64,000 nt of DNA. Source: Lachnospiraceae bacterium (GTDB lineage: Bacteria > Bacillota > Clostridia > Lachnospirales > Lachnospiraceae). A program made the translations under genes and the position numbers. Shown here one piece after another: positions 16,147 to 43,168 of this stretch (position 1 is its first letter; the number at the start of each line of letters is the position of its first letter). The stretch spans positions 489,709-553,708 of the forward strand of contig CABJAM010000002.1 in the NCBI GenBank assembly GCA_902363555.1, written 5' to 3'. The notes beneath the pieces are model-generated. The model had not been told where the DNA came from. It was given only the letters and a program-made list of their open reading frames with translations, and did not search any database.

Positions 16147-16406
16147 AAATCGCTCTCCTTTTCGTCATACATAATAAATAATTTTGAGTTACATTTTCTG
16201 TTTTTATGTAACGGTATATTTGTGGTATACCATATTATTATCTAATAATTATAACATGGCTCAGTAAATCCTGCACCTGTTTTTTTAAGATTGTGTGAAT
16301 CTGCGTTTTCGCCTTGAATCACCCATGCCAATCCGTTATAATTAAATTATATCTCCCGTCCACGCTCCCCCAGCGTCCGACGGCAGAGCATCCCTTACTG
16401 AATTAT

Positions 16407-18422
16407 ATGGAGGAACACCTCTTGAAAAAATTATGGAACAAAATCAGCTTCAGAATCATAATACTCACAGTCATCGTCTTTGTGCCGGTGCTGATCTTTC
16501 TCATCATATTCAATATCCAGAGCACCCACAGCGCCACAGCAGCGCTGATCCAGGAAAACCAGGGAAATCTGGACACTGCGGCTCAGCAGTTGGACAACAT
16601 TTTAGAGGTTACGGAGACGCTGCTGAAAACAGTGAACAACGATTCCACGCTGCTGGATAAAATACGGTATTACAAGCCCAGGGTGGCGGCGGACGCGGCA
16701 GAAGCCACGCCAGACACTACCGCAGAAATCCCCCCAGATAATGACGCAAACGTCCCCCCCCCAGTTGATGATGATGATTTGCCCCGAGACAATTCCGCAG
16801 ACACTGCCACAGATGCGCCCACAAGCGACTCCGCAGACGCTGACGCAGATGCGCCCAAAAGCGACTCCGCAAAAGCTGACGCAGATGCGCCCAAAAGCGA
16901 TTCCACAGGCAGCTCAGCTTCCGGCGAGATCAGCAACGACACAGAATCAGAATACTACCGTGCGGTCCAGCTCCTGTTCAACCACCTGCAGGACTCCCTG
17001 GCGGCCAGCGACTTTACGCAAAATGCTTTTATCTATTTTCCTGAACAGGAATTATTTTACAACTCCAAAAAAGAAGCACAGATGACCGAATATCTCAACA
17101 CCATTATTCAGTCAGACATGTCCGGCGGCCCCGTCAACCTGATGGATACTTATCAAAAATCATGGGCGCCGGTCTATGTGGGCAGCCAATGGTATATTTT
17201 GCGCATTTGGAGGTACAATCCCAAAGCCAATGGCTACTATATCGGCGCATGGTTTTCTGTGGACGCCCTCAGAGACTCCATCCACGTCTCCATAAATACG
17301 GACTATGACCGGCTGTTTATCGCCAATGGCAGAGGAACCTACCTCAACAGCAACGGACTTTATATTAATCCCAATACGATCGCCTCCGGAGATATGGTCC
17401 ATGACTCCAAAGGCTCAGACATAACCGGCTCCGGGCGTACGTCAGAGGACTATTACTACATATATACCCTTTCCGAGAAGGCGCCCATACGGCTTATAAA
17501 GCTGCTGAACACCAAAACCGTAAAGTCATTATCACCGGATATTTCGCTGGCTATTTTTATCATGTTCCTGTGCTTCGCCATGCTCATCCTTTTATTTACG
17601 GTATGCATCCGCCGCTGGCTTTTAAGTCCGATCAGCTCCACCATGCGCTCCATGGACCGTATCCGTTCCGGAGATATTGATCACCGTATCCCGGTCAATT
17701 CCGGGGATTGTGTGGAATTTACATCTCTGAATACGTTGTTCAATAACATGATGGACCAGGTCAATCAGCTCAAAAACGAAATTTATGAGGGGCAGTTGGA
17801 ACGCCAGGAAATACGTCTGGAATACCTTCAACAGCAGATACAGCCCCACTTCATATTAAATACGTTAAACACGCTGTATAATCACACCGAAGATGATATC
17901 CAGAAGGAAATCATACTGCTAATGACCAAGTATTACCGCTTTGTCGTCAACATAGATTCGCGGTATGTACAGCTTGGGCAGGAGCTGGATCACATAAAGA
18001 ACTATCTGAAGCTGCAGCAGATCCGCTATCCTCATGCATTTGAGTATGAGATCCGCTGTGAAAGCTCCCTGGAGATCATACCGGTACCGCCCTTTCTTAT
18101 CGAAAGCTTTGTGGGAAATACGATCAAGCACGCACTGAATTTCTCGGATTGTGTTTTTATCCGGATCGAGGCGTATCTTTTGGATACCTTCACCACACGC
18201 ATACGCATTTCCGATACCGGGGAAGGCTTCGAGGACGAGGTTCTGGATATGATCAATGATTACCTGGAAAACAAAACTATCTCGGAAGAGCTGGGCGTCG
18301 GTATCCGCAATTCCATCGAGCGGCTGCGGCTCATCTACCACGACAATGCCGCCATACGCCTGTACAATCAGGAGTCCGGCGGCGCTGTGGTGGAAATCGA
18401 TCTGTCGCTGCAAATGCCATAA
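16407..18422 (+). CDS. sensor histidine kinase (YesM-like)
   Basis: N-terminal TM, a large extracellular domain containing low-complexity repeats, a second TM, HAMP, the His-kinase motif QQQIQPHFILNTLNTLY and an HATPase domain. Confidence 0.85.
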   Translation: MEEHLLKKLWNKISFRIIILTVIVFVPVLIFLIIFNIQSTHSATAALIQENQGNLDTAAQQLDNILEVTETLLKTVNNDSTLLDKIRYYKPRVAADAAEATPDTTAEIPPDNDANVPPPVDDDDLPRDNSADTATDAPTSDSADADADAPKSDSAKADADAPKSDSTGSSASGEISNDTESEYYRAVQLLFNHLQDSLAASDFTQNAFIYFPEQELFYNSKKEAQMTEYLNTIIQSDMSGGPVNLMDTYQKSWAPVYVGSQWYILRIWRYNPKANGYYIGAWFSVDALRDSIHVSINTDYDRLFIANGRGTYLNSNGLYINPNTIASGDMVHDSKGSDITGSGRTSEDYYYIYTLSEKAPIRLIKLLNTKTVKSLSPDISLAIFIMFLCFAMLILLFTVCIRRWLLSPISSTMRSMDRIRSGDIDHRIPVNSGDCVEFTSLNTLFNNMMDQVNQLKNEIYEGQLERQEIRLEYLQQQIQPHFILNTLNTLYNHTEDDIQKEIILLMTKYYRFVVNIDSRYVQLGQELDHIKNYLKLQQIRYPHAFEYEIRCESSLEIIPVPPFLIESFVGNTIKHALNFSDCVFIRIEAYLLDTFTTRIRISDTGEGFEDEVLDMINDYLENKTISEELGVGIRNSIERLRLIYHDNAAIRLYNQESGGAVVEIDLSLQMP

Positions 18423-18479
18423 ACATGTAACGGTTCGGCCACAATGAACGACACATAAACATTGAGGGAGGCTTTACTT

Positions 18480-19292
18480 ATGAATTTAAATATATTGCTT
18501 GTGGATGATGAAGCATATTGTGTGGAAAAACTGATCCACGACATCGACTGGAAGGCGCTGGGTATTTCTCATGCTTATTCCGCGTATTCCGCGGCCCAGG
18601 CGATGAAGATACTGCAATCGGAGCCCATACAGCTCCTCATCTGCGATATTGAGATGCCCGGCGCCAGCGGCCTGGACCTGATTGAATGGACCAATGAGGC
18701 CGCCCGCCTTATGAATTTTTCTATTGAATGTCTTATGCTGACCTGTCATCCGGAATATGAATTTATGCGCAAGGCCATGCAGCTTGGCTGTTCGGATTAT
18801 CTGCTCAAGCCGTTCAAAAAAGAAGAAATCACCCAGTCCATTGCCGCACTGGTGGAAAAGATTCAAAAGAAAAACGAGGAGCAGCCGGAACTGTTTTCAT
18901 CCCGGACCGACTACCTGTCCGCCACCGCGGACAGTGATCCTATGCCTGCGTCGGCGGATTCCGATGAGCATATACGTACCCGGGTCATTCCGTATATCCA
19001 GGAGCATATCGCCGCCCCCATTACGGTGACGGAAATTGCCCAGGCTGTCAACCTCAACGCTCAGTATCTGATGCGCCTGTTCCGCAGACAGATGGGCTGC
19101 TCCATCATCCAGTACGTGACCCGCTATAAAATGGAACTGGCCAAGGATATGCTGATCCATACAAACATCAGCAACGCGGAAATATCCGAAAAACTGGGCT
19201 ATCTGAATACGACCTATTTTCTTAAAGTCTTCAGGGAAAATGAGGGTATGACGCCGGGAGCCTTCCGGAAAAAATACAACATATATAAATAA
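18480..19292 (+). CDS. response regulator, CheY receiver plus AraC-type HTH (YesN-like)
   Basis: Receiver domain (LLVDDE...D) and C-terminal AraC HTH. RBS GAGGGAGG. Confidence 0.9.
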   Translation: MNLNILLVDDEAYCVEKLIHDIDWKALGISHAYSAYSAAQAMKILQSEPIQLLICDIEMPGASGLDLIEWTNEAARLMNFSIECLMLTCHPEYEFMRKAMQLGCSDYLLKPFKKEEITQSIAALVEKIQKKNEEQPELFSSRTDYLSATADSDPMPASADSDEHIRTRVIPYIQEHIAAPITVTEIAQAVNLNAQYLMRLFRRQMGCSIIQYVTRYKMELAKDMLIHTNISNAEISEKLGYLNTTYFLKVFRENEGMTPGAFRKKYNIYK

Positions 19293-19517
19293 ATTTACGA
19301 GGGGCTGCCGGTGAATGGCGATTTTTAAGCCCCTCGTTCCTTTATGTCTAAACACTCCTTTTCCTAAGCTGTTTTCGCGGCGCTTTTCCCTTCGTATTTT
19401 TGGATCTCACTAAGAAGGAAACACTTTGATAATGAACATCCGGGCATTCTTTTTATCGTTGGCACTGCACCAGAAAACGGTTCATATCGTCCTCAGTGCC
19501 AACAAGTATAGCCCCCC

Positions 19518-22500
19518 TTACCTGTGGCGCTTTTTGTAGTGCGTCTTTTTCAGGTAGACAAACAAGACCATAACACCGGCCAAAGATACCAGCATCATCA
19601 GCCGCCAGGGCAGCAGGTTGGTCGTATCACCCGTCTGTGGCGTGGTCGTATCGTCGGTCTGCGGCGTAGTCGTACCACCCGTCTGTGGCGTAGTCGTATC
19701 GCCTGTCTGCGGGGTCGTTGTTTCGTCCGTCTGTGGGGTCGTTGTTTCGTCCGTCTGCGGAATGGTGGAATCGTTGATGGTGATCGTTACCGTAAAGGGA
19801 ACGCCATCGAACGTGTAGGTCGCTGTAACCATTCCCGTTTTAAGGGCTTTGAAGGTATAGGTATCACCGTTCTCCGTCATGGAAAGCAGCGCCTTGTCAT
19901 AACTCCACGCACCGCCCGCGGGCGCGGGTGTCCAGCTTACGCTCTGGCCCACCTGCAAGGTGTGGCTGTCCGGCAGACCGGTGATAACGGCCGCAGCATG
20001 GGGCTGCACTGCCACCGCAAAGGGTGACAAGCCGGAAAATGTGCCTTTTGCCATGCCGTTCTCCACCGTGACCGTGCGGCGCTCCTCCACCTTGTCCTTG
20101 CAGTGGAACATCTCTACTTCCTGCCCGTTGTACCTGGCATCCACCGGGATCTCCACGTCGAGGTCGCCGGTATATTTACCAGAGGACAGGCCTATGTCAA
20201 AGAGTACGAGCAGCTCACCCTTATCCTGTCTCTCCCGGATGCCGTCGCACACCTCACAGGCGCCTTTTTCGTGAAGACCGTTCTTTTTAACGGCCAGAAC
20301 AGCGTCGCCGGTGAAGGAGCCGCTCACCTTTATGCCAGTATCCGGGTCATAGAGCGTGCGGTAAAAATATGTGGGTGAGGGATCGCCGTCAGCCTGTTTG
20401 GTATATGTTTCGGTCATCACGCTGCTGTCGATGCTGTCCGGCGAGCCGGCGTAGGCTTTCAAGGTGCTGCCCAGCGGCACGGTGATGGGAGCGGAATAGG
20501 GCTGCCATGTGCCGCTTGTCGTCGGGTCGGAGTCATCCAGCATGTAATAGATCGTCGCGCCCGGCGTGGCGCAGGCGAGGGTGACGGTCTGGGCCTCCCG
20601 ATATGCGCCGCCCTTGGGGTCTGCCGTGGGCATGGCGGTCTGGCCCATAGCCGTCCATACTGCCGTCAGGATGATCTCATGGTCCGGCATGGTGAGTGTT
20701 TCCCCCGGCATATAAGTGGTTCCGTCGTACGCCCAACCCGCGAACACATAGCCGCTGCGGGTGAGACTGCCGGTATTTCCCAGGACGGTGACATCCATGC
20801 CCTTGCCGTAATAAGCGCTGTCTGATGGCACATCGCCGCTATCCTTATCCGGGGCGGTGTAGGTCACCATGTCTGCGGGCCAGGCCACGGGCGCGGTGCC
20901 ATTCTTAACGAACACTGCGTCGGGGATGCTGGAGTCGTTGACCAGGTTAGCGTAAGAAAGCGCGTACCCGTCCGTTCCCTCGCAGGACCGGAGGTTCATG
21001 GAGACGGGGGCCGCACTCACGGTCAGGTCACCGAACACACACATACCGTGGCCCTCCGTGCCTTTGCCGCCTTGGACAGTGAGGCTGCCAGTGAAGGCAA
21101 GCTCCAGATCGCCCAAAACCCTCATACCGTCGCTCCATGCCGTGCCGTAAAGGCCTTTGGCGGTCAGCGAGCCGCTCCCCGCCAGCTTGTAACTGCTGCC
21201 GTTTTGAAAGAGGACGCCCGTATATAAACCCTCGGCCGTCACCGCGCCGTCCACCGTCAAAACGCCGCCCGATTTGATGCCGTTATTCCCCCGGGCAGTG
21301 GTGGTTCCTGCACCGTCCAGCGTGACGTTCCCGCCAGAAGAGATGCTATATCTGGAGAGGCCGCCGCCCGTCTTGCCGCTCTCCACCACGATAGTGCCGC
21401 CGTTGTGGATGGTGATGTCGTCTCCTGACAAGCCGCTGCCGCCGCTGCCGCCACTGTTCCCGCCCGTGGCGGTCAGGGAACCGCCATTACCCACGCTGAC
21501 GATCAGGCTGGCGGCGAAAATGCCGTGACCGCCAGAAAAAGTCGATGTACACGCGCCGCCCACGGCAGTCAGGAACGCGTTCCCTACCTCAACAGTCAGA
21601 TTGCCGTTGCAGTAGATTGCAGTCTTCCCCATGTCGCTGTTCCCTGATCCGCCAGTGAGGAAACAGGTTCCCTCCACCGTCAGGGTGGCATCAGAGGCGA
21701 AGTAGAGCGCGAATTCCATATCCCGGGCGGTAAGGTCTAGGTCCTGGATAATCAGGGAACGAACGCTGCTTGCCACCCTGATGTTGGAGCCGTTCACGGC
21801 CCTCCCGCCCGAGGTGACGGTCACGTCGTCCACGTCGATGGTCAGCGTGGCGTCGCCGTTCCCCCGGATGAAGATGGTTCCGCCGGACTGGACACCCAGC
21901 CCTTTGGCGCTTGCGTTCGTACTGCCATTCCAAAGTGTCAGCGTCTCAGTGGGATTTCCCGCGCCGTCATACTGTTTGCCAATGCCGTTCTTACAGTCAA
22001 GGATGGTGCAGTTTTGATACGTCGGGTTGGGGGCGTCGGTGCCATTATGTTCCATCTCCAGCATAGCTCCGTCCGTGACCGACAGGCTGCCGCCGCTTTT
22101 ACCATACTTACCGCTGCCCACATCGCAGCCGTCAGTGCTGCTGGCCGTAACACTGGCGCCCTCGCCGGAAATTATAACGGTACCGCCGGAGCCAAACCAG
22201 CCGCCGCCAATCCCCGCGCCGTGCCCTCTGTACCCGCTGCTCATGGCGGTCACTCGCGCGCTGCCCCGGATGCTGATCTCGCCGCCGTCGCCACCTTCAG
22301 TGTGGCCCGAGTCGGGGTCGCCGATGCCGGTGCCACCACCGATCCCTGCTCCGCCATCGCTGCCCGTGGCCACCACTTGCGCGCTGCCCTGGATGGTGAT
22401 TTTTCCGCCGGAGCCCAACTGGCCGCCGCCAATCCCCGCGCCGCCGTCGCCGCCCATGGCCGCTACTTGAACACTGCCTTGGATGGTGATTTCACCGCCG

Positions 22501-23909
22501 CTGCCCTCTGCGCTGCCGCCGATGCCGGCACCGCCGTCGCCACTCTTGTAGGAGTTTCCGCCCATGGCGTTCAATTTGCCGCTGCCTTCGATCGTCACGG
22601 CCGCGCCGTCCGGTACCTGGATTCCAGCGCACCTGACTCCGCCCGTAAACGTATTTTCGTTCCGCAGGATCAGGGTGGCGGAACTGCCATTGTTGATGTC
22701 AAAAGCGGTCGATCCGGTGGACGAGCAGTCAATGTGGACGTTGTCCAGCGTCAGACTGGCGGCCGTGTTGTCCGCCACAGCCAGCCGGTAGTCCGCCGTA
22801 CTGGCAACGTCGTCTCTCATGCGGATGGTCATGGGCTTGCCTGAGGTGATCTTCAGCACCTCTCCGTCCAGGTAAAAATCCCCGCCATTTTGACTGTCGA
22901 TCAAATCCGCGCCCTCAATGACAAAATCGCCCTTTACACAGGAATTGACCTCAATCGTATCCGCGCCGCCAGGCAGCACCCTGACGGAGGGGAGCGGGTC
23001 GCAGACGTAGCCCTCCGGGAGCGCCGCCGTAAAGAGATATTCCCCGGCGACGGGCCAGTTGCCGCCGTCCTGTCGGAAAGCGTCACATATCCAGCCGGAG
23101 ATGTCCACCGTGACCGGGTCTGTTCCGCCCTCAAACTCCGCGCTGATAGCCGTGGGCAGCATGGCAGCCACATCGTCAAAGCTGGCCTGGTTGTCCGCGG
23201 TCACCCCGGACATGGGCAGTTCGCCCATGTTCAGATAATCATCGCCCACGAACGTCCAGTTCACGATGGTTTTTACAAGACTGTTATCTGCCTGTGGCGC
23301 CGGTTCACATGCACCGTCATGCCCGTCGACAAGGGTGCAGCCTTCCGTTTTTGTACATAGGCCCGGTTCTCCCGGCTGGTTATCCGCTGATGTCTCCGTG
23401 TCTTTATCCATCACCGTCACGGTGATCTGCGGCGGCTCCACGCCGTCCGACAGGGAGCAGCCGCCCACGTCCGCGGTAAACACATACTTGTCCAGCGTGT
23501 CGTCGTCGTAGGCAGGGGTGCTGTTCCACGTTACCGGAATCTGTTCCTCTGTCGTAGTGACGGTTGTGGCCGTTTTTCCGCTGTCTACTTCCGGCTCCGC
23601 ATCGTTTTCCGGTGTGCCGTCCTCTGTGACAAGTATATCTGCTGAAACCCTGTATACCGCCGCCGTCAGCGTGTCCGGCAGGTCCAAAGCCTCCCGCGCT
23701 GTTCCAGGCGTAACGGTCTGCTCCGCGACACCGCTGTCCAGCGGCTCAAAGGACGCGATGGCCCCGTCCTGCGGCGGGGTATTGGTGTTCTCCGCAGCCG
23801 CACCCACCGGTATTATCAAGCTGAACAGCATCGTTGCGGACAGCAGCACCGCAAGCATCCGTTTTTTGGCCTTCATCCGGGCAGTCTCCTTCTCGATCAT
23901 CTTTCTCAT
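19518..23909 (-). CDS. large cell-surface protein (about 1463 aa)
   Basis: Signal peptide (KKRMLAVLLSATMLFSLIIPVGAAA). Multiple Gly-rich GGxGGAGIGGG beta-helix-like repeats. A Listeria/Bacteroides-type repeat (GYVFAGW...LTAVW). A chitobiase-C-like GATIYYxLDDSDPT domain. Seven TTTPQT(D/G) heptads followed by a TM segment and a KKTHYKKRHR tail. Start at 23909 with AGGAGG RBS. Confidence 0.85.
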   Translation of the reverse strand: MRKMIEKETARMKAKKRMLAVLLSATMLFSLIIPVGAAAENTNTPPQDGAIASFEPLDSGVAEQTVTPGTAREALDLPDTLTAAVYRVSADILVTEDGTPENDAEPEVDSGKTATTVTTTEEQIPVTWNSTPAYDDDTLDKYVFTADVGGCSLSDGVEPPQITVTVMDKDTETSADNQPGEPGLCTKTEGCTLVDGHDGACEPAPQADNSLVKTIVNWTFVGDDYLNMGELPMSGVTADNQASFDDVAAMLPTAISAEFEGGTDPVTVDISGWICDAFRQDGGNWPVAGEYLFTAALPEGYVCDPLPSVRVLPGGADTIEVNSCVKGDFVIEGADLIDSQNGGDFYLDGEVLKITSGKPMTIRMRDDVASTADYRLAVADNTAASLTLDNVHIDCSSTGSTAFDINNGSSATLILRNENTFTGGVRCAGIQVPDGAAVTIEGSGKLNAMGGNSYKSGDGGAGIGGSAEGSGGEITIQGSVQVAAMGGDGGAGIGGGQLGSGGKITIQGSAQVVATGSDGGAGIGGGTGIGDPDSGHTEGGDGGEISIRGSARVTAMSSGYRGHGAGIGGGWFGSGGTVIISGEGASVTASSTDGCDVGSGKYGKSGGSLSVTDGAMLEMEHNGTDAPNPTYQNCTILDCKNGIGKQYDGAGNPTETLTLWNGSTNASAKGLGVQSGGTIFIRGNGDATLTIDVDDVTVTSGGRAVNGSNIRVASSVRSLIIQDLDLTARDMEFALYFASDATLTVEGTCFLTGGSGNSDMGKTAIYCNGNLTVEVGNAFLTAVGGACTSTFSGGHGIFAASLIVSVGNGGSLTATGGNSGGSGGSGLSGDDITIHNGGTIVVESGKTGGGLSRYSISSGGNVTLDGAGTTTARGNNGIKSGGVLTVDGAVTAEGLYTGVLFQNGSSYKLAGSGSLTAKGLYGTAWSDGMRVLGDLELAFTGSLTVQGGKGTEGHGMCVFGDLTVSAAPVSMNLRSCEGTDGYALSYANLVNDSSIPDAVFVKNGTAPVAWPADMVTYTAPDKDSGDVPSDSAYYGKGMDVTVLGNTGSLTRSGYVFAGWAYDGTTYMPGETLTMPDHEIILTAVWTAMGQTAMPTADPKGGAYREAQTVTLACATPGATIYYMLDDSDPTTSGTWQPYSAPITVPLGSTLKAYAGSPDSIDSSVMTETYTKQADGDPSPTYFYRTLYDPDTGIKVSGSFTGDAVLAVKKNGLHEKGACEVCDGIRERQDKGELLVLFDIGLSSGKYTGDLDVEIPVDARYNGQEVEMFHCKDKVEERRTVTVENGMAKGTFSGLSPFAVAVQPHAAAVITGLPDSHTLQVGQSVSWTPAPAGGAWSYDKALLSMTENGDTYTFKALKTGMVTATYTFDGVPFTVTITINDSTIPQTDETTTPQTDETTTPQTGDTTTPQTGGTTTPQTDDTTTPQTGDTTNLLPWRLMMLVSLAGVMVLFVYLKKTHYKKRHR
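19615..19762 (-). repeat. seven tandem 21-bp repeats encoding the TTTPQT(D/G) heptads at the 3' end of the surface-protein gene
   Basis: GTCGT(A/T)TC(R)CC(Y)GTCTG(Y)GG(S) units, read directly from the sequence. Confidence 0.85.
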
Positions 23910-24224
23910 GTTCGCTCCTCCTCTTTTCCGCACACTTCCCCGCTGCCATACAAAAAGGTTATCAACGTGTATATGTCTTGCCTATGTAATAGGCAAGACA
24001 AGGGGTATACCCCTTGTGCGATTTTTATTGGCTTTATTCAGTTATCCGCAGATATCCTAACCCATTTTGATTGTTGCAGATCCACCTCCCAAAATCAATA
24101 AAAAAAGCATGAGCCGTTCTCACAGAGCTTAAGCCGGAGGAAAGCCGCTGTAAATCCGCTCCGCTTCATGCTATAATAAACCTGACAAACTGTACTTTTA
24201 TGATCCGCCTTTGGGAAAGGAGGC

Positions 24225-24944
24225 ATGGAGATGCTTGCTGTGATCTGCGACGATCTCGCGGGTGACCGGGAGATCCTGCTGGATTTTTGTGCCCGATATG
24301 CAAAAAACAACCATATGTCCATCGCTGCGCTGGACTTTGAAAACGCCGGAGCGCTGCTGCAGAGCCGGGAGGCCCGGAGCGCCGACGTGATATTTCTCGA
24401 TATTTATATGGAAGGCGCCCTGGGGGTGGACGCCGCCCGCATCCTGCGGGGGAAGGGCTTTCGCGGCGCACTGGTCTTCACGACCACCAGCCGGGAGCAC
24501 TACGCGGACGGCTTCGATGTGGAAGCCTCCCATTACCTGATCAAGCCGATAAGCTGGGAAGCTTTCTGTGAGGCTATGCGCCGGGCCCATGACCGGATGA
24601 GTGCTCCCGCCCGAAAGGTGCGCGTGACCGCCGGGCGGGATGAACTGGATGTGGACGTTTCCGGTATCCAATATGTGGAGGTCTACGGGCACAAAACGAT
24701 ACTGCATACCCTGCGGGGCGAGGTGGTGGTCTCCCAGTCCCTTACCGCGCTGGAAGAACGACTGGGCGGCGACCCGTTTTTGCGGTGTTACCGCTACTTT
24801 ATCGTCAACATGGACTTTGTGAAGCGCATGAACGAGGACAACTTTTTAATGAAGGACGGCCGGGAAATCCCCCTCTCACGGGATGGGCGGGCCGCTCTCA
24901 AGAGCCGGTACATGGCCTATGTGTTCGGCCGGATGGAGGGATGA
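24225..24944 (+). CDS. LytTR-family response regulator (AgrA-like)
   Basis: Receiver domain plus LytTR DNA-binding domain (YVEVYGHKTILHTLRGEVV...YFIVNMDFV). RBS AAAGGAGG. Confidence 0.9.
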   Translation: MEMLAVICDDLAGDREILLDFCARYAKNNHMSIAALDFENAGALLQSREARSADVIFLDIYMEGALGVDAARILRGKGFRGALVFTTTSREHYADGFDVEASHYLIKPISWEAFCEAMRRAHDRMSAPARKVRVTAGRDELDVDVSGIQYVEVYGHKTILHTLRGEVVVSQSLTALEERLGGDPFLRCYRYFIVNMDFVKRMNEDNFLMKDGREIPLSRDGRAALKSRYMAYVFGRMEG

Positions 24945-24948
24945 TACG

Positions 24949-26319
24949 ATGGAAACGATTGCTGCGGAATATATCACCTGTGTGATCGAGGCGGCCATGA
25001 CCATGTTCTTCTGCCTCTATGTGGCCCGCGATCTGCTGCGGGTACGGATGCGGATCCTGGCACCGGCGGTGGCGCTGCTGGCCATCGCGGGCAGTGCGGG
25101 GAGTATGGCGCTGTCGGCATGGCTGAGCGCCTGGCTGCCCTTTTCAATGGACACCAGCACGGTATCCCTGCCGCTCTGGTTTGCTGTGGGCTATTTCAGC
25201 CTGCGCCGGGCCACCCACGAGCGGGCAGGCGGGCTGCTGTTCATCCTCCTCCTATCGGTGCAGGTACTTCATGTATGCCGGAGCACCACCTACTTTTTCT
25301 ACGGTCTCTTTTCCCCCGGTATGGCCGACGGCGCATACTGCTGGGCGGATATTCCGGGCTTTGGCATCCCATCTGTGGTGCTGACGTTCCTGCTGGCGGC
25401 ATTCTGTCACGGGCTCTACAAGAAACTGCGGGGGATCGATCTGCGGGGATATCTTCAGTTGTGGTTCATCCCCCTGTTCTTCGTGATCCTTTATGTCCTG
25501 CAGACCAACATCTATCCGCTGGGGAGTTTCACCCTCACAAACGGTTTCCGCCTTTTGATCAGTTTATGCGCTTTCGTGACCTACTCTCAGATGGTCTCAG
25601 CCATCGCTCACGCAGCGATGGCGGCGAGGGAAACAGAGACCCATACCCAGCTTGCCCACCAGTTGGATCTGCAGCGGGCGCGGGTGGACGATTTAGAGAG
25701 TCACGCTGAGGAAATGAAGCGCATTCGCCACGACCGCAGGCAGCATGTCCAGGTCCTGCGGGGCCTGTTGGAAAAGGACGAGGTCGCCGAAGCGCTCGCC
25801 TATCTTGATGATTATGAGGACAGCATGGCCAGCGCGATCCGGCCGCCCCTGTGTGAAAACTTCGTGGCCGACACGCTCTGCCGCCGCTACGAGACGCTGG
25901 CAAAGCAATCAAACATCACGGTGACGATGAATGTTGCTCTGCCTAAAGAGCCGGGCGTATCGGGCAGCGATCTTGCAGTCATCCTGGGCAACCTGTGGGA
26001 AAACGCCGTGGCCGCCGCACTGGACGCGGAGGAAGCACGCCGCTTTATCCGCCTGCGGATACAGACCCAGGAGGATCAGGTGCTGATCCGTATGGAGAAT
26101 GGCTACGGCGGAGTGATCTGCCAGGATGGCGAGCGGTTTTTATCCTCCAAGCCGGGCCGTAACCTGGCCGAGGGAGTGGGCATTGCCAGCATCCGCTCAA
26201 TGGCCCGGCGCTACGGCGGCATGGCGGCCTTTGACTATACCCCGGACACCTTTACTGCCTCAGTGCTGCTCTACCCGCGGACATCGGGAACGTTCTGCCC
26301 GACAGGTATCGGAGTATAA
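24949..26319 (+). CDS. AgrC-like multi-TM GHKL sensor histidine kinase
   Basis: Six or more TM helices followed by an HATPase_c_5-like domain. Start METIAAEY 5 nt after the regulator's stop codon. Confidence 0.8.
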   Translation: METIAAEYITCVIEAAMTMFFCLYVARDLLRVRMRILAPAVALLAIAGSAGSMALSAWLSAWLPFSMDTSTVSLPLWFAVGYFSLRRATHERAGGLLFILLLSVQVLHVCRSTTYFFYGLFSPGMADGAYCWADIPGFGIPSVVLTFLLAAFCHGLYKKLRGIDLRGYLQLWFIPLFFVILYVLQTNIYPLGSFTLTNGFRLLISLCAFVTYSQMVSAIAHAAMAARETETHTQLAHQLDLQRARVDDLESHAEEMKRIRHDRRQHVQVLRGLLEKDEVAEALAYLDDYEDSMASAIRPPLCENFVADTLCRRYETLAKQSNITVTMNVALPKEPGVSGSDLAVILGNLWENAVAAALDAEEARRFIRLRIQTQEDQVLIRMENGYGGVICQDGERFLSSKPGRNLAEGVGIASIRSMARRYGGMAAFDYTPDTFTASVLLYPRTSGTFCPTGIGV

Positions 26320-26453
26320 CGTCATTTTTGTATATTCTTAGGTCATTTTTGTTGATTATTAAATTTCTATAAAAATGCTATGATACAAATATACAAAAAA
26401 CAAACCGATGCTTTGTGCAATATGAGCATCCACGAAATTCAGGAGGTAAGTAT

Positions 26454-28085
26454 ATGAAAAGATTTTTGGCAATCGCGCTCGTACTTGTCATGTCGTTATC
26501 TTTATTGGCAGGCTGTGGTTCCAGCAATTCCGGCTCTAAGGACACAAAAGCCCCGGCCGCAACCGAAGCAAAGGGTGATACCGCAGCCCCCGACGGAACG
26601 CAGGCTCCGGACGCTACCGATGGCAGTGAAGGCGGCGCAGCCTCTGCCGGCACATCAAAAGATTACATCAACTTTGACGAAGACCCCTATGAAGTTGTTA
26701 TTGAATGTCTGAACCTTGGCTCCAACGCCGAAAGTGTTCCAGCTATGGAAGAAGCCATTAACGCCATTACAGTTCCGGCAATCAACGTTAAGGTTAAGCT
26801 TCAGGTCATCCACATTGCAGACCATGCCACAAAGACAGCCCTGTGGGCCGCCGGTGGTGAAAAGATCGATATCTATTATGTTGGTACGACCGTAGCCTTC
26901 TCCCAGTTCGTATCCGATGGTATGATCATCCCGATCACCGACTTACTTGCAGAACGCGGCGCTACACTGAATGAAAAATGTGCTGAACTTCTGGACGCCT
27001 TTACTGTTGAAGGCGAGATTTATGCCATCCCTCAGGATATCTACTGCGCAGCAGCCAGAGGTATTGACTATAATGCCGATATGGCAAAGGAATGCGGTAT
27101 TGAACTTCCTGAAAAATGGGATATGCAGGCGATGACAGATATCGGCCATGCAATCAAGGAAGCGAATCCGGAATACTATCTGATGGCTAAAAACGGTTCT
27201 CAGGATGCCGGTGAAATCTATTACTACTACGGTATGGATGGTTTCGGCAGCAGCACCGGCGCTTACGGCGTTTTCTTAAATCCGGAAACCGATACCGAGA
27301 TCGTAAACCTTTATACATCCGATGAATTTAAAGAGTACTGCAAATTCAACATCGAATGGAAGGAAAATGGCTTTATGCCCGCAGACCAGGCAGTGAACGG
27401 TGAAAACGCCCAGGACGTTTACAGAAATGGTATGAGCTTCTGCCAGTGGGTAAGCGTTCGTCCTTCCGAAGAAATTTCCAAACAGAACTTTACACCATTT
27501 GACAGCCAGGAAGCCGCATTTACAAATGCATGGTTTACAAGCTCAGGTGTACAGGAAAAAGCATGGGGCATTTCCACAAACTGTGAAAAGCCTGAGAAAG
27601 CTATGGATTTCTTAAACTTCTTATATGAAAATACAGAAGTTGCCAATATCCTCAACTATGGTATTGAAGGTACCGATTACGTTTACACCGATGGCTCCGA
27701 CAAGATCATTACATATCCGGAAGGCATCGACTCCACAAACGTGGGCTGGAACCGTTCCTTCTGTATGTTTGGCGACCAGAGCGAAATCAACCAGATGGTT
27801 CCTGCCACAGAAGAATACTATACAACACTTAAAGAATTTAACGATAACGCTGTTGCCTGCAAAACTCTTGGCTATTCTTTCGACGCCACCAACGTTTCCA
27901 CACAGGTAGCCGCAGTGTCCAACATCGTTCAGGAATACGTTCCAAGCCTTGTTTACGGTGAAATTTCCGAAGATAAGCTGGATACCTATCTGGAAGATAT
28001 GAACGCTAAGCTTGAAAGCGCCGGCATTCTGGATATCATCGCCGAGAATCAGGCACAGCTCAACGCATGGCTTGAAACCAGATAG
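26454..28085 (+). CDS. ABC transporter substrate-binding lipoprotein (LplA-like)
   Basis: Lipobox LLAGCGSS. Size about 540 aa. AGGAGG RBS. Confidence 0.9.
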   Translation: MKRFLAIALVLVMSLSLLAGCGSSNSGSKDTKAPAATEAKGDTAAPDGTQAPDATDGSEGGAASAGTSKDYINFDEDPYEVVIECLNLGSNAESVPAMEEAINAITVPAINVKVKLQVIHIADHATKTALWAAGGEKIDIYYVGTTVAFSQFVSDGMIIPITDLLAERGATLNEKCAELLDAFTVEGEIYAIPQDIYCAAARGIDYNADMAKECGIELPEKWDMQAMTDIGHAIKEANPEYYLMAKNGSQDAGEIYYYYGMDGFGSSTGAYGVFLNPETDTEIVNLYTSDEFKEYCKFNIEWKENGFMPADQAVNGENAQDVYRNGMSFCQWVSVRPSEEISKQNFTPFDSQEAAFTNAWFTSSGVQEKAWGISTNCEKPEKAMDFLNFLYENTEVANILNYGIEGTDYVYTDGSDKIITYPEGIDSTNVGWNRSFCMFGDQSEINQMVPATEEYYTTLKEFNDNAVACKTLGYSFDATNVSTQVAAVSNIVQEYVPSLVYGEISEDKLDTYLEDMNAKLESAGILDIIAENQAQLNAWLETR

Positions 28086-28200
28086 TTTTAACACATATGA
28101 ACTCAGAGGCGGTCCGGCCCAGTCCGGCCGCCCTCTTTGGTAAAGCCGGTCACAGGCCGCAAATCTCCCTATCAAACGTTTCGGAAAGGAGCTTTTATAC

Positions 28201-29175
28201 ATGGCAGCGAATGCAAAAGCAACCAATGTAAATCCTGACACCATGGATTTAAAAGATATTCCAAAGAAAAATAAAACAAAGTTCCGCCACTGGATCCCAT
28301 TTTATATCATGGGCCTCCCAGGCATGCTCTACCTGATCATCAACAATTACCTGCCCATGTTCGGCCTGCAGATCGCCTTTAAGAAATTCAACTACTCTCA
28401 GGGTATCTGGGGCAGTAAATGGTGTGGTCTTTCAAACTTCGAGTACCTGTTTTCATCCGACCAGGCGTTTCGTATCACACGAAACACCATCCTGTATAAT
28501 CTGGCTTTCATCGTCCTTGGCATGGTCTTTGGCGTGGCCGTGGCCATCCTTGTCAATGAGGTCATCAGCAAAGCGGCAAAGCGCTTTTACCAGACCGTCA
28601 TCCTTCTGCCCTACCTGATGTCCATGGTAATCATCGCTTATCTTGTATTTGCTTACTTAAGCCCCTCCACGGGTCTGTTCAACTCCATCATCACCAGTCT
28701 TGGCGGCGAGGGTGTGGACTGGTACAGGGAAAAGGCCTACTGGCCCTTTATCCTCATCTTTGTCCAGCAATGGAAATCCATCGGCTTTGGTATGGTGCTT
28801 TATCTGTCCTCCATCGTCGGTATCAGCAAGGAATATTATGAGGCGGCTCAGATCGACGGGGCCACCAAATGGCAGCAGATCCGCAAAATCACACTGCCTC
28901 TGTTAAAGCCTACCATCATCACACTGCTCATCCTTAACTGCGGTAATATTTTCCGGTCTGATTTTGGTCTGTTCTATCAGGTGCCTATGAACCAGGGTAC
29001 ACTGTACGCCGTCACCGACACGATCGATACGTTCGTGTACCGCGGTCTGATGGTTAAGCCCAACATGGCCATGTCCTCGGCCGCCGGCTTCTATCAGTCC
29101 ATCGTAGGCTTTATCTGCATCGTAACGGTCAACGGAATCATCCGCAAGGTCAGCAAAGAAAATGCAATGTTTTAA
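28201..29175 (+). CDS. sugar ABC transporter permease (LplB-like)
   Basis: Six-TM permease with EAA-like motif. Confidence 0.9.
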   Translation: MAANAKATNVNPDTMDLKDIPKKNKTKFRHWIPFYIMGLPGMLYLIINNYLPMFGLQIAFKKFNYSQGIWGSKWCGLSNFEYLFSSDQAFRITRNTILYNLAFIVLGMVFGVAVAILVNEVISKAAKRFYQTVILLPYLMSMVIIAYLVFAYLSPSTGLFNSIITSLGGEGVDWYREKAYWPFILIFVQQWKSIGFGMVLYLSSIVGISKEYYEAAQIDGATKWQQIRKITLPLLKPTIITLLILNCGNIFRSDFGLFYQVPMNQGTLYAVTDTIDTFVYRGLMVKPNMAMSSAAGFYQSIVGFICIVTVNGIIRKVSKENAMF

Positions 29176-29190
29176 GAAGGAGGGAACACT

Positions 29191-30072
29191 ATGGTATCCA
29201 GAGACGAAAAAAGATGGCGCGCTGCGGCCCATATTATATTAATTATCCTGTCTTTTCTGGCAATAATGCCGTTTATATTACTTGTGATCGCCTCCTTCAC
29301 AGATGAAAAGGTGGCGCTGACCAATGGCTATTCGTATTTTCCGGCCAAATTTTCACTGGCGGCCTATTCTTATATCGCCAATGAAGCATCCACGATCTTC
29401 CGTGCTTACGGCGTAACGATCATTGTTACTGTGATCGGAACGATTGTCGGTCTGATCATTACATCCATGCTGGCCTACATGCTTTCCAGAGAAGGCCTTC
29501 CGGGCCGTAAGGTGCTGAACTTCCTCGTCATTTTTACAATGCTCTTTAACGGCGGCCTTGTGCCGACCTACCTGATTTACGCGTCGGTATTCCACATTAA
29601 GGATACACTGTTTGCACTGATCATTCCCAGCTTATTGATGAACGCATTTAACATCATACTGGTGAAAAATTATTTTACATACAGCCTTCCTCAGGAATTA
29701 TTTGAATCCGCACGTATGGATGGCGCCGGCGAGTTCAAAGTGCTGCGCACCATCGTTCTCCCGCTGTCCAAGCCCATCCTTGCCACCGTCGGACTGATGA
29801 TCGCTATCGCCTACTGGAATGACTGGCAGAATGGTCTGTATTACTTAAATGACACAAAGCTTTACAGTATCCAGAACATTCTCAACGCCATTAACACAAG
29901 CGTCCAGTTCCTGGCCTCCAACAGCGTCAGCGGCGCCAATATGGCCGATATCCCATCCACAACCGTCCGTATGGCCATCGCTGTGGTGGGTGTCATCCCC
30001 ATCATTATCGCCTATCCATTTTTCCAGAAATACTTTGTCAAAGGTATCACTATGGGCGCGGTAAAGGGCTGA
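29191..30072 (+). CDS. carbohydrate ABC transporter permease (LplC-like)
   Basis: Permease fold. RBS AAGGAGG. Confidence 0.9.
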   Translation: MVSRDEKRWRAAAHIILIILSFLAIMPFILLVIASFTDEKVALTNGYSYFPAKFSLAAYSYIANEASTIFRAYGVTIIVTVIGTIVGLIITSMLAYMLSREGLPGRKVLNFLVIFTMLFNGGLVPTYLIYASVFHIKDTLFALIIPSLLMNAFNIILVKNYFTYSLPQELFESARMDGAGEFKVLRTIVLPLSKPILATVGLMIAIAYWNDWQNGLYYLNDTKLYSIQNILNAINTSVQFLASNSVSGANMADIPSTTVRMAIAVVGVIPIIIAYPFFQKYFVKGITMGAVKG

Positions 30073-33064: not shown

Positions 33065-34012
33065 TTATCGTATTCCCAGTTCCTTCTGCATCATCAGCCG
33101 CTCTTTAATCAAGCGGACAAAGTCCTCCGGCTCTGTCACGCGCACCAGCGGCCCAAAGGAAAGGACGCGTATAACAAGCTCTGTCGCGTCTCCGGCATCA
33201 TAAAACACCTTCACCTCGTAGAAATTATCAGAGAGACGCCGGGCTTCCTTTTGAAAGTGTGCAAAATGGAGCATGACCCGCTCCAGGGCATTTCTCTGGT
33301 CTGTCAGCCGGAGCACAAAATAATGCTTTTCCTTTTCGTCCGCGGAATGCTCTGCACTAAAAACCTCATCGGTGATCTTGCAGTCCGTTATCCTGCTCAT
33401 ATTAATCATACAGCTTCCCTGGCGGCGGGTCGCGATCAGCCGGAACTTATCATCCTTCTCAGAATATTCCAGCTTATGAGGTGTGCACATAAGCTTACAC
33501 AGCCGGCCATGCCGGTTATGAAATCGCAGTCTCAGATTTTTTTCCTGCCGGATCGCCTTTAATATGATCTGAAAATTTTGTATATACACCGGATCTGAAA
33601 AGTCATCGCCATCCTTATACTGATCAAAAACCGTAAAATCCTCCGGCGTGAACAGGGGCTCCATCTTATCGGCCATTGCCCATATATCCGCTAAATCTGC
33701 GGAAGATTTCTCTGTCGTCAGGTCACAAAACAGACAAAACCTGGGGTCCAGACGGATGGACTTGAGCCACCGCAGCTCAAGAGTGGTCAACGGCATTTCC
33801 AGCTTCTGCTTCAATGGCGTATGCAAAGCGTCATCCAGCAGGGGCCACTGATGACTTTCCAGCGCAGGCACAATGGTCATCGCACTTTCGGCAAAAGCCA
33901 TTTCGTGAATGATCCTGTACATTTCATTGGAGGTCAGCTTTCCATCCACCGCCAGCGCCAGTACTTTAGCCACCGCTTTATAATAGCAGCCGTAAATTTC
34001 ATGGAACAGCAT
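33065..34012 (-). CDS. WYL-domain transcriptional regulator (with WCX-like C-terminal domain)
   Basis: Central WYL-like beta-barrel region (RLRFHNRHGR...FRLIATRR). AAGGTGGTG RBS before MLFHEIYG. Confidence 0.65.
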   Translation of the reverse strand: MLFHEIYGCYYKAVAKVLALAVDGKLTSNEMYRIIHEMAFAESAMTIVPALESHQWPLLDDALHTPLKQKLEMPLTTLELRWLKSIRLDPRFCLFCDLTTEKSSADLADIWAMADKMEPLFTPEDFTVFDQYKDGDDFSDPVYIQNFQIILKAIRQEKNLRLRFHNRHGRLCKLMCTPHKLEYSEKDDKFRLIATRRQGSCMINMSRITDCKITDEVFSAEHSADEKEKHYFVLRLTDQRNALERVMLHFAHFQKEARRLSDNFYEVKVFYDAGDATELVIRVLSFGPLVRVTEPEDFVRLIKERLMMQKELGIR

Positions 34013-35309
34013 CCGTATCACCACCTTCCAGATCATAAAGCCTGTACATATCCCCCATATCCGCGCGGAACTGATTTTCCACGGTCCGGTTTGAGAAATC
34101 CATCTGGACGATACGGCAGATAAATGTACGTATCCATGGGATCATTTCCGTTGTATCAAATATATCGGCCGTAAAACGGGCCGTATGGGCATCGATGCGT
34201 TCCACCTGTCCGCAGCGCCGCTCCCGCATCAGCCGCTGATAGATATGCTCCTCGCCCCGGCCGATGTGTATCGTAAATTCCACATGCTCCAGATGCGATA
34301 ATTTATTTTTACACTGCACACCCCACATATGCTTTTTCAATACTTCCAGCCTTTGTCGTAACGACTCAAACTGCGCTGCTTCCGTACCCGGATCTACCTG
34401 GGTAATATAATCCAGGCGGTAAGATTCCATACATTTATAGGGTACACAATACCCCATCAAATACTGGCGTCCGGTCTGGGCGCTGACAAAAATCTGAAGC
34501 GGGATGACCTCCCATGACCTGGGCGTTTTAGTCACCCGGCTATAATTTTTTATAAACACAGACCGCCGGGCATTTATAGCCTCCAGCAGCTCATATAGTA
34601 TCTCACTCTCCATGGCATATGTAATGTAATGATGCTTAAAAGCAAAGCAGCTCACAGCCCCCTGGGAATGGTGAGCTAAAACCGGTGATATTTTCTCAGC
34701 GCCGGAAGTTCCAGCATCCATCCGGTCCAGCAAATAACTTCCGATAACGCCCAGAAGTCCGGCTTCGGAAAAGAACGCCACCGCCTCCGCCGCAGGCGCC
34801 AGATCATACGATGGACTTCGGCCATAAAGGACCGTCCTTCCGGCCTTTTCCGTATGGAGCAGCCCCATTGCCGCATATTCCTTTAATTTATTCCGCACCG
34901 TAGAAGCATCAAACAGCATGGGCGGTGAAAAGTGCGACAGATAATCCCGGTCCATAAGCTCCATAATCTCATTCAATGATAATCGTATTTCAGGATCACA
35001 CAATATATCCAATAGTATAAAATGCAGCGTAATATCTCCATCCGTAAAGCTTTTCGCCTTGAACGCCTGGTACAGCGGATTATGCCCGGTACTTCTGCTG
35101 TCAATGGACAGGAACATATTTTTTCCGCCCTGTTCCATACGAAAGGACATATAGTCACCCAAATAGCTTTCGATACGTCGGCGCTCATTGTCATAAGACC
35201 GGGCGCTTTTATGGTCAAATTCGTCACGGCTTTTGAAACCATAGACGTAAAACTCGCGCATATAATCACGGATGCGTTCAAATACTTTGATCCGCTCAGA
35301 ATAGGGCAT
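33999..35309 (-). CDS. WYL-domain protein (second, tandem)
   Basis: WEVIPLQIFVSAQTGRQYLMGYC is a WYL core. GGGAGGTG RBS before MPYSERIK. Confidence 0.6.
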   Translation of the reverse strand: MPYSERIKVFERIRDYMREFYVYGFKSRDEFDHKSARSYDNERRRIESYLGDYMSFRMEQGGKNMFLSIDSRSTGHNPLYQAFKAKSFTDGDITLHFILLDILCDPEIRLSLNEIMELMDRDYLSHFSPPMLFDASTVRNKLKEYAAMGLLHTEKAGRTVLYGRSPSYDLAPAAEAVAFFSEAGLLGVIGSYLLDRMDAGTSGAEKISPVLAHHSQGAVSCFAFKHHYITYAMESEILYELLEAINARRSVFIKNYSRVTKTPRSWEVIPLQIFVSAQTGRQYLMGYCVPYKCMESYRLDYITQVDPGTEAAQFESLRQRLEVLKKHMWGVQCKNKLSHLEHVEFTIHIGRGEEHIYQRLMRERRCGQVERIDAHTARFTADIFDTTEMIPWIRTFICRIVQMDFSNRTVENQFRADMGDMYRLYDLEGGDTDAVP

Positions 35310-35367
35310 AGATACACCTCCCGCAATGCAGCCATTCAAAAAGAGCCCAACGGCTGCATCTTATTGC

Positions 35368-36324
35368 TTATTGTGACCGGATGATATTTTCCAGTTTTCT
35401 TATCGTCATCCGGTCTTTGGCTTTATTGGCCAATAACAGGCTGACCAGTACGGCCATCAGCAGTTCTACAAATAACCGCTTACCGGATATAATACCTGGT
35501 TTGGGCCTTATATCCAGATACCATGTCGTTCCTGGTACATCGAAGGTATAAGCGCCCTTCTGCTCCATAATGTCTCCGGACGATGCAAGGACATAATTGT
35601 TAAATTGATAAGGGCACGATAGCGTATAGCTGTAAGTGTCAAGATAATAATTCAGCAAAGTACTTCTGGGCAGCACCGCCGCCATATATCCTCCATTTTC
35701 ATAATTATTCATAGATCTTACAAGAGCAAAATCCTCGAATCCCAAGGGAAATATATAATCCTGGCCATTGGCCAATGCTTCACAGGCTTTGTCTCTGAAA
35801 TAGATATAATTATAATTCAGCAACGCTGTGCCTATGGACTCCGCTTCGCTGCCATAGAGCATAAAGTCGTGCCCACGCATATAATCCACAATTTTTTGTG
35901 CCGCTCTTGATCTCAATATGATTTCGGTTCCCGTATTTCTTCCCGAACGCCAGTATGAAAAAGCGGTACCCTGTTCAGGAATATAAGTCAGGCTGTCCAC
36001 ACTCAAATCCGATGTAACTAAAAACTCTATATGATATTTAAATATAGATTCATTCTCATTAAACACATCGGAATAGTAGTCCTCACATGCCTGATCCATC
36101 AGGGAAATCGTTTTGTCCAGGGCATTTTGTACGTACTCCTGACATTCTGCAACATATGCGGATAGTTTCTGTTTTGCCCGAACATAATGCAAAAATTCAA
36201 ATATTAAGAAAACACTTAGGCTGATCACCAGCGTTAAAATAAACACGTTGCTAAAAACCTTTCCCTTTTTATCCCACTGCTCTAATTTCTTTTCCAAAAG
36301 AACCCCTCCTCTCATAAACCACAC
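35368..36324 (-). CDS. membrane protein resembling the N-terminal sensor part of a YesM-type histidine kinase (truncated?)
   Basis: TM1, an extracytoplasmic domain of about 230 aa, then TM2, ending 18 aa after TM2 with no kinase domain. Confidence 0.45.
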   Translation of the reverse strand: MWFMRGGVLLEKKLEQWDKKGKVFSNVFILTLVISLSVFLIFEFLHYVRAKQKLSAYVAECQEYVQNALDKTISLMDQACEDYYSDVFNENESIFKYHIEFLVTSDLSVDSLTYIPEQGTAFSYWRSGRNTGTEIILRSRAAQKIVDYMRGHDFMLYGSEAESIGTALLNYNYIYFRDKACEALANGQDYIFPLGFEDFALVRSMNNYENGGYMAAVLPRSTLLNYYLDTYSYTLSCPYQFNNYVLASSGDIMEQKGAYTFDVPGTTWYLDIRPKPGIISGKRLFVELLMAVLVSLLLANKAKDRMTIRKLENIIRSQ

Positions 36325-43131: not shown

Positions 43132-43168
43132 TTAATTCCATATTTCATTTCACCTCATATGCTTTCAT

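Follow-up and report, generated by a model that had tools for sequence, protein, structure and literature searches.

Within a 64,000-nt stretch of the genome of a Lachnospiraceae bacterium (assembly GCA_902363555.1, contig CABJAM010000002.1, positions 489,709 to 553,708; the whole stretch is hereafter called the window), a giant gene for a 1463-aa secreted, probably wall-anchored beta-helix protein (19518-23909, minus strand) lies divergent to a two-component system, which consists of a LytTR-type response regulator (24225-24944, plus strand) and an AgrC/VirS-like histidine kinase (24949-26319, plus strand). The three genes arrived together as a single insertion, a direct-repeat box and two promoters conserved in six lineages lie between the divergent genes, and orthologous two-component systems are recurrently linked to genes of surface proteins. 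The explanation we favour, and consider fairly probable, is that of a horizontally acquired, self-contained three-gene switch for a wall-anchored beta-helix adhesin. A signal-regulated adhesin had already been proposed in a first-pass annotation made from the letters alone, and recurrent linkage, co-insertion and the conserved box lend inferential support to that proposal.

According to the favoured explanation the kinase would sense an extracellular or membrane signal and phosphorylate the response regulator at D59, whereupon a dimer of the phosphorylated regulator would bind the direct repeat at 24107-24136 and activate, not repress, two weak divergent extended -10 promoters, namely its own, in positive autoregulation, and that of the giant gene. 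The giant protein would then be exported by its Sec signal peptide and probably be linked to peptidoglycan at TPQTG by a class B-like sortase. A Thr-rich linker and an immunoglobulin-like (Ig-like) stalk would project the beta-helix of about 670 residues with its N-terminal Ig-like tip domains, and the ligand may be a host, dietary or bacterial surface, most likely a glycan.

A three-gene insertion beside a sugar transporter

The cassette (19297-26315, no strand assigned) stands out in the composition profile, with a GC content of about 60% across 19.5-26.3 kb against about 47-50% on both flanks. Outside it lie, on the left, a YesM-like kinase and a YesN-like AraC-type response regulator (16314-19292, plus strand) and, on the right, a substrate-binding protein (SBP, DUF3502) and two permeases of an ATP-binding cassette (ABC) sugar transporter (26415-30072, plus strand). 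In two relatives, L024 and L023, the YesM/YesN pair and the SBP-permease-permease genes are five contiguous genes and thus represent the empty site; their SBPs are 90% and 74% identical to that of the window, respectively, and a member of the 90%-identity protein cluster to which that of L023 belongs is annotated as Catenibacillus sp. Nucleotide synteny with both relatives is lost between 19296 and 19297 and regained between 26315 and 26316, at the kinase stop codon. The insertion in the window is therefore 7,019 bp long and contains the genes of the giant protein, the regulator and the kinase and no others; these arrived as one and now separate the YesMN-type pair from the ABC sugar transporter that belongs to it. 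Neither terminal repeats nor an integrase were found at the insertion ends (19297 and 26315). The identical 1463-aa protein occurs on 14 public contigs in unchanged context.

A direct repeat (GTCATTTTTGTATATTCTTA and GTCATTTTTGTTGATTATTA, 21-nt register, 26321-26361) directly follows the insertion and precedes the SBP gene; it is present at the empty site of L024 too and is probably a binding site of the YesN-like AraC-type regulator at the promoter of the ABC transporter.

The two-component system and its regulatory region

The response regulator possesses a REC and a LytTR domain (PF00072 and PF04397, both over cut-off) with the canonical residues of a receiver, D9/D10, D59 and K107, present, and is thus of AgrA type. 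The kinase, of 456 aa, is of AgrC type (HPK10), with a sensor of about 6-7 hydrophobic transmembrane (TM) segments, the H-box IRH261D, the N-box LGNLWENA and a HATPase_c_5 domain (PF14501, 50.9 bits); the motif IRHDRRQH is invariant among the orthologues, and N and G boxes are present. These domains bear out the AgrA/AgrC-like pair named in the first-pass annotation, whereas the kinase start given there, 24883, was over-extended, the start in orthologues and in public gene calls being 24949 (METIAAEY).

Kinase orthologues of 49-87% identity, membrane sensor half included, were found in Qiania, Diplocloster, Lacrimispora, Blautia, Coprobacillus, Stoquefichus and [Clostridium] innocuum, and a scan of metagenomes with the kinase alignment yielded five loci, two of them fragments. 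In five lineages other than that of the window a gene for a secreted or surface protein, or a remnant of one, stands divergent to the orthologous system at every informative locus, and the passengers differ: an unrelated secreted repeat protein in L014, a 554-aa protein in Qiania, a 994-aa protein in L020, a 582-aa protein in C. innocuum, where a LRR_5/MBG_2 protein with YPKTGD follows downstream, and in L018 and L019 a truncated remnant of a signal peptide and about 90 codons. Qiania has, in addition, an 869-aa protein beside a second, fragmented copy of the regulator gene. In five Lachnospiraceae-type loci the two-component genes exceed their surroundings in GC content; in C. innocuum they do not.

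The second copy, in Qiania dongpingensis (L015:12425-13394), comprises the whole regulatory region, that is hairpins, minus-strand promoter and box, duplicated beside the 869-aa gene. Three open reading frames (ORFs) of about 86 aa follow, the first of which aligns with the regulator's receiver part at 39% identity, so that the cassette seems to be present here in a second, decayed copy.

An alignment of the sequences 5' of the regulator gene in six lineages brought out four conserved blocks amid drifting sequence, namely the extended -10 of the minus strand, half-sites 1 and 2 of the box, and the -10 of the plus strand. The LytTR-type direct-repeat box (24107-24136, plus strand) reads GCATGAGCCG-N10-GCTTAAGCCG in a 20-nt register; half-site 1 (GCnTrAGCCG, 24107-24116) and half-site 2 (GCnTrArCCG, 24127-24136) are both invariant in the six lineages, while spacer and flanks drift. 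The box pattern has a single match in the window even if three mismatches are allowed, and in the fetched loci it was found upstream of response regulator genes only, including the second Qiania copy. By our own estimate chance alone would yield an 8/10 match such as that of the window repeat about once in 315 nt, so the box is significant only because it is conserved across lineages. A search for LytTR boxes in 23934-24224, as advised in the first-pass annotation, thus ends in one invariant direct-repeat pair with conserved divergent promoters on either side.

The predicted promoter of the giant gene (24070-24098, minus strand) consists of TTGATT (24098-24093), a 17-nt spacer and the extended -10 TGCAACAAT (24078-24070; consensus TGnrAyAAT), and its columns are invariant or near-invariant in the six lineages. 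With a predicted transcription start near 24063 the box would lie at about -44 to -73. On the plus strand the promoter of the regulator-kinase operon is predicted from the extended -10 TGCTATAAT (24169-24177), an invariant TG-n-TATAAT, and transcription would start near 24184. The spacing between the box and the minus-strand promoter is gapless in all six lineages, whereas that between the box and the regulator promoter is shifted by about 11 nt in C. innocuum.

These distances bear on the question whether the box might autoregulate the regulator and kinase only, while the surface-protein gene is expressed independently and rides on the same mobile segment. Such an explanation would agree with the position of the box upstream of the regulator's strong extended -10 at all loci, with L018 and L019, where the system has no intact cargo gene, and with those homologues of the giant protein which stand beside other regulators. 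However, it is the -35 and extended -10 of the minus strand that keep a fixed distance to the box, the distance to the regulator promoter being the variable one, and the -10 of the giant gene (AACAAT) is weak, as that of an activator-dependent promoter would be. The divergent surface-protein gene or remnant at every informative orthologous locus, together with the regulatory region duplicated whole beside a second surface-protein gene in Qiania, likewise speaks for control of the cargo, and we regard independent expression as very doubtful.

The geometry of the region is that of the AgrA sites at P2/P3 (PMC4227749) and of the VirR boxes (PMC4877802), where paired direct repeats abut weak promoters. 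As in an agr-type locus, paired direct repeats in a register of about 20-21 nt lie upstream of divergent promoters, here as one pair. The likeness to the staphylococcal agr locus (AgrBDCA) extends to an AgrC-like kinase, an AgrA-like regulator and divergent promoters with a LytTR direct-repeat site between them; there, the weak promoters P2 and P3 are served by AgrA at paired direct repeats and the operon is autoregulated (PMC4227749). In contrast to agr, the window unit does not include AgrB, AgrD or RNAIII, has one repeat pair instead of two and a sensor domain conserved across genera, and the divergent transcript encodes a 1463-aa protein and is not a regulatory RNA.

As the first-pass annotation had stated, no agrB or agrD is visible. 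A match to AgrB (PF04647) was found in none of the Pfam-annotated, non-overlapping window ORFs of at least 90 aa (four short ORFs were left unscanned), no agrD was seen in the window, where no search dedicated to agrD-like peptides was made, and neither gene was seen at the orthologous loci, each viewed over ±8 kb or as far as its contig reaches. The locus should therefore not be called agr. With a regulator-then-kinase operon lacking agrBD and a box upstream of an effector gene, it resembles VirSR in gene order and box position, and the VirSR system of Clostridium perfringens, with VirR boxes at pfoA, ccp and vrr, is a better comparator than a full agr locus. In C. perfringens, too, virR precedes virS, and no agrBD is known to adjoin that pair. 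VirR acts from two imperfect direct repeats just 5' of its target promoters (PMC4877802). The box of the window differs in sequence (GCnTrAGCCG), and its target would be an adjoining divergent surface-protein gene in a mobile cassette with exchangeable cargo.

The signal itself could still come from quorum sensing, if the cassette were an agr arm answering a cyclic autoinducing peptide from agrBD genes elsewhere in the genome; such an explanation differs from the favoured one in the signal only. An HPK10-type kinase with RHD H-box, HATPase_c_5 and polytopic sensor, combined with a LytTR regulator, is the hallmark of agr and VirSR systems, and for VirS an Agr-like autoinducing peptide has indeed been proposed as the signal (PMC4877802). 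On the other hand, the sensor half of the window kinase is 57-87% identical across genera and families, from Lachnospiraceae to Erysipelotrichaceae. The sensor domains of AgrC specificity groups are hypervariable, and the conservation across genera weakly points to a common cue that is not strain-specific. Since agrB and agrD were, moreover, not seen in the stretches named above, a peptide signal is considered conceivable, albeit not probable, and the switch we propose would more readily respond to such a shared cue.

In its predicted 5' leader the giant gene has two adjacent perfect palindromes or hairpins (23975-24017, minus strand; fold z -2.8), GTCTTGCCTAT-gta-ATAGGCAAGAC and ACAAGGGG-tata-CCCCTTGT. 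Both recur in L018 and L020 and in Qiania's second copy (L015:12293-12332), where they form, as in the window, the best-conserved part of the leader; one change among these loci, from G-C to A-T, is compensatory. A search of Rfam over 19300-26500 gave no match at E<=1 and no riboswitch was detected, so the hairpins correspond to no known riboswitch and may represent either an RNA element or an operator for a protein.

Architecture and anchoring of the giant surface protein

The ORF, its signal peptide and its Pfam domains agree with the first-pass description of a 1463-aa secreted protein divergent from a LytTR system, and AGGAGG is found just 5' of its ATG. From N- to C-terminus the layout comprises Ig-like tip domains, a long beta-helix, an Ig-like stalk, a Thr-rich linker and a sortase signal. 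The signal peptide (aa 1-39, 23793-23909, minus strand as are all following parts; MRKMIEKETARMKAKKRMLAVLLSATMLFSLIIPVGAAA, followed by E) was read from the translation, and the N-terminus is conserved among homologues. The N-terminal distal region (aa 40-330, 22920-23792) is conserved as well and contains two Ig-like modules with a Cys-rich linker, CTKTEGCTLVDGHDGAC, between them; their match to Big_4 is weak and sub-threshold (E 0.0036). Behind the helix, beta-sandwich stalk modules (20403-20867) are represented by a CHB_HEX_C_1/Fn3_assoc match (aa 1098-1169) above the Pfam threshold and a Flg_new match of the Listeria-Bacteroides type (aa 1015-1083) below it, with TIGR02543 narrowly under its cut-off, so that the Listeria/Bacteroides repeat and the chitobiase-C-like domain noted earlier were both recovered. 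A moderately confident model of the C-terminal 400 aa shows a string of beta-sandwiches, including InlB-B-repeat-like and CHB_HEX_C modules.

A C-terminal module (aa ~1158-1385, 19755-20438) is common to surface proteins beside orthologous two-component systems, with identities of 61% over 223 aa to the 869-aa and 68% over 74 aa to the 554-aa protein of Qiania, and of 54% over 224 aa to the 994-aa protein of L020. Both Qiania proteins share this module and the PQTGD motif, while their passenger domains differ. Homologues of the giant protein itself (1200-2000 aa) occur in Lachnospiraceae (Eisenbergiella, Enterocloster, Hungatella) with 38-54% identity over the helix; N-terminus and helix are held in common, but S-layer homology (SLH) or choline-binding repeats serve as anchor.

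The central part (aa ~335-1000, 20910-22907) is modelled as a right-handed parallel beta-helix of about 670 residues. AlphaFold2, run on aa 320-1010 with 26 homologues, gave a confident model (mean pLDDT 90.3, pTM 0.85) with short strands all along, so that the structure-prediction check advised earlier speaks for a beta-helix and against disorder. The predicted beta-solenoid is significantly similar to beta-helices of known structure; its structural matches include NosD, UpaB and phage tailspikes, and in Foldseek the same fold class ranked top with E-values that were not significant. The curated beta-helix families PF13229, PF18889 and PF14262 had no Pfam match on the window protein even at E<=5, and PF18889 matches in homologues were faint or weak. 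A profile search of the PDB with the homologue alignment returned choline-binding and SLH matches only, which derive from columns present in homologues alone and are uninformative on the helix.

Within the helix lie Gly-rich GAGIGGG coils in 30-aa units (22110-22547). At least six Gly-rich repeats had been counted at first, which is correct if degenerate copies are included; canonical G[AH]GIGG motifs number four (aa 460, 490, 520, 564) and are followed by about five degenerate GxG[ILVM] turns. The 30-aa coils are the source of the DNA repeat at 22209-22541 and thus of the internal nucleotide repetition reported before, with three copies of the 90-nt unit at 22209-22511 and an array in TRF at 22342-22541. 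A second array, absent from the earlier annotation, extends over 19621-19757 (24 nt x 5.7) and encodes TTTPQT[GD][DEG]; this Thr-rich tandem repeat of about six units (19621-19760), identified from translation and repeat finding, may be read as a wall-spanning linker of duplicated sorting-motif units. The linker units TTTPQTGD and TTTPQTDE are the sorting motif itself, and three PQTG stand in a row, of which only the last precedes the membrane segment.

The cell-wall sorting signal (19521-19643, from the translation) is composed of TPQTGDTTN, a hydrophobic TM segment and KKTHYKKRHR, with TPQTG 36 residues from the C-terminus. Together with the signal peptide these are the components of sortase substrates, for which a PxTG-type motif, a hydrophobic segment and a basic tail at 17-45 aa from the end are required (PMC4155245). 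The tail closely resembles that of the SrtB substrates of Clostridioides difficile (CD2831 and CD3246, (S/P)PXTG; for example SPKTGDSTN...KRRKMKKS; PMC4155245), xPxTGD(S/T)TN, TM segment and basic tail being nearly identical, and it weakly matches the C-terminal tail of the NCBIfam IsdC model. These substrates are inducible, sortase-anchored adhesins of a gut clostridium (PMC4155245; PMC4591827), and their regulation is attributed to cyclic di-GMP (c-di-GMP; PMC4591827), whereas the window has a LytTR two-component system.

The predicted architecture combines repetitive stalk domains, a putative binding domain at the distal end and an anchor at the surface, as in the concept of fibrillar adhesins (stalk, adhesive domain and anchor), where Gram-positive beta-solenoid domains are classed as adhesive or carbohydrate-binding (PMC9210967). 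PfbA of Streptococcus pneumoniae with its LPXTG, the binding region of the SRRP of L. reuteri and the Cthe_2159 family (PF14262) form a related Gram-positive group, from which the window protein differs by a much longer helix (about 670 aa), its GAGIGGG coils, another domain context, the anchor TPQTG instead of LPXTG and a helix under every Pfam threshold. The likeness to Pmp and autotransporters suggested in the first-pass annotation is sound at the level of the fold; compared with autotransporter, Pmp and two-partner secretion (TPS) passengers (Vag8, UpaB, pertactin, EtpA), however, the protein has neither a beta-barrel translocator nor a TPS domain and belongs to a Gram-positive host with a sortase-type signal, so that the likeness is structural analogy alone. 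The repeat, G[AH]GIGG, is not the GGA[ILV] of chlamydial Pmp proteins (FxxN was not searched separately), and the protein is not assigned to these. Control of the SrtB substrates in C. difficile acts through c-di-GMP riboswitches.

A wall-anchored carbohydrate-active enzyme, such as a lyase, hydrolase or epimerase of the pectate-lyase fold, which would add inducible degradation to a sugar locus, could account for the CHB_HEX_C domain, common in glycosidases, and for the place of the insertion, with a YesMN-type two-component system on one side and the genes of an ABC sugar transporter on the other. Yet no catalytic CAZy-type family of Pfam or NCBIfam was found on the helix, the best match being a sub-threshold DUF4957, and the columns invariant in eight homologues are nearly all structural (G, L, V, T, A), with two Asp only in the helix. 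The best structural matches include the non-enzymatic adhesins Vag8, UpaB, PfbA, SRRP and EtpA, orthologous systems carry unrelated cargo that is not enzyme-like (LRR_5/MBG_2, Ig-like repeats), and the choice of insertion site seems fortuitous, given that relatives have the flanking operon intact. An enzyme is hence rather unlikely, and an adhesin is preferred.

Exchange of cargo and meaning of the cassette

Several observations weigh against a self-contained switch for an anchored adhesin. A single box pair lies between two divergent promoters, whereas agr has one pair for each, and both promoters were called from consensus and conservation alone. L018 and L019 keep the two-component system with truncated cargo only, so that the system may have other targets, and remoter relatives of the giant protein stand beside MalT-like, OmpR-type or no regulator, often near integrases or relaxases. 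As to the anchor, TPQTG has T where the C. difficile substrates show S or P, the 994-aa cargo of L020 has the C-terminal module followed by a TM tail without PxTG, and the Pfam-annotated window ORFs include no sortase.

The linkage also emerges when one starts from the giant protein and not from the kinase: its full-length beta-helix homologues in UMGS260 (L005/L008), the metagenome locus L007 and Hungatella hathewayi (L009) each adjoin a LytTR regulator and kinase, which are only about 31% identical to the pair of the window. A profile search with an alignment of eight giant-protein sequences added two genome loci, both duplicates of known contexts. In UMGS260 the LytTR system and the beta-helix gene are separated by a GGDEF (diguanylate cyclase) gene of the same strand (L005:6820-7887), which hints at a layer of c-di-GMP control in that lineage. 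In a remoter subgroup of the giant family (L006:4846-7877, L011:4851-7897, L010:7585-7893) a conserved ORF of about 100 aa (MGIQE.AYDLSVRIAEAVRYLKEE...) was found upstream, and in two of the three loci a divergent MalT/LuxR-type regulator precedes the giant-family gene; the relaxase and integrase neighbouring L011 suggest carriage on an integrative element. Upstream at L007 there is a 127-aa REC-like ORF, which matches H. hathewayi. Neither this ORF nor that of about 100 aa has a counterpart in the window.

Elsewhere in the window, a second, unrelated LytTR regulator (44479-45198) and a HATPase_c_5 kinase (43169-44479) immediately precede, on the minus strand, the gene of LanM, a class II lanthipeptide synthetase with DUF4135 and LANC_like (39778-42891, minus strand), in a low-GC stretch of 36-39%, and a 46-aa ORF between the kinase and LanM genes (43001-43141, minus strand; MELKWFEEANIAEEIKEIKKFENNTEVEGFVSITALCSEFLTIICC) looks like the LanA precursor. 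A WYL-domain protein (33999-35339) between ORFs of 323 and 318 aa without Pfam match may mark a small defence or regulatory island (33065-36324, minus strand). Two paralogous ATPase genes, each with AAA_14 and DUF4143 (4372-5745, plus strand; 36573-37799, minus strand) are situated 31 kb apart. An 802-aa ORF (53173-55581, plus strand) unites an AraC-type helix-turn-helix (aa ~197-275) with a GH39 glycoside hydrolase (aa 330-662) and is either an unusual fusion of regulator and enzyme or two genes merged in the ORF call.

LytTR control of surface and virulence factors and beta-solenoid adhesins are both established, so no concept is overturned here. Modestly new is the evidence that switch and box travel together with an exchangeable surface-protein cargo, regulator and protein each being of known kinds; within a limited library no paper on this cassette was found. 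Among the cargo observed are the beta-helix giant, proteins with Ig repeats and further secreted proteins, besides the LRR_5/MBG_2 protein downstream in C. innocuum. Tentatively, and at well below an even chance, we propose that regulator, kinase, box, divergent promoters and double-hairpin leader may constitute a mobile chassis which swaps cargo among gut Lachnospiraceae and Erysipelotrichaceae and answers a shared gut cue, be it a host, dietary or community metabolite, and not a strain-specific peptide. If this were true, commensals would gain plug-in, signal-inducible surface proteins.

The control and exchange of large surface proteins in gut Clostridia are little understood, and the locus offers a concrete regulatory unit with one defined box, two defined promoters, an evident cargo gene and a kinase whose sensor is conserved. 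Cultured carriers include Qiania dongpingensis and [Clostridium] innocuum, and Hungatella hathewayi for the beta-helix branch. If the favoured explanation is confirmed, one could look for the gut signal that induces the switch and for what this new, long beta-helix adhesin binds, and the horizontal spread of an adhesin together with its own switch as one unit would be documented.

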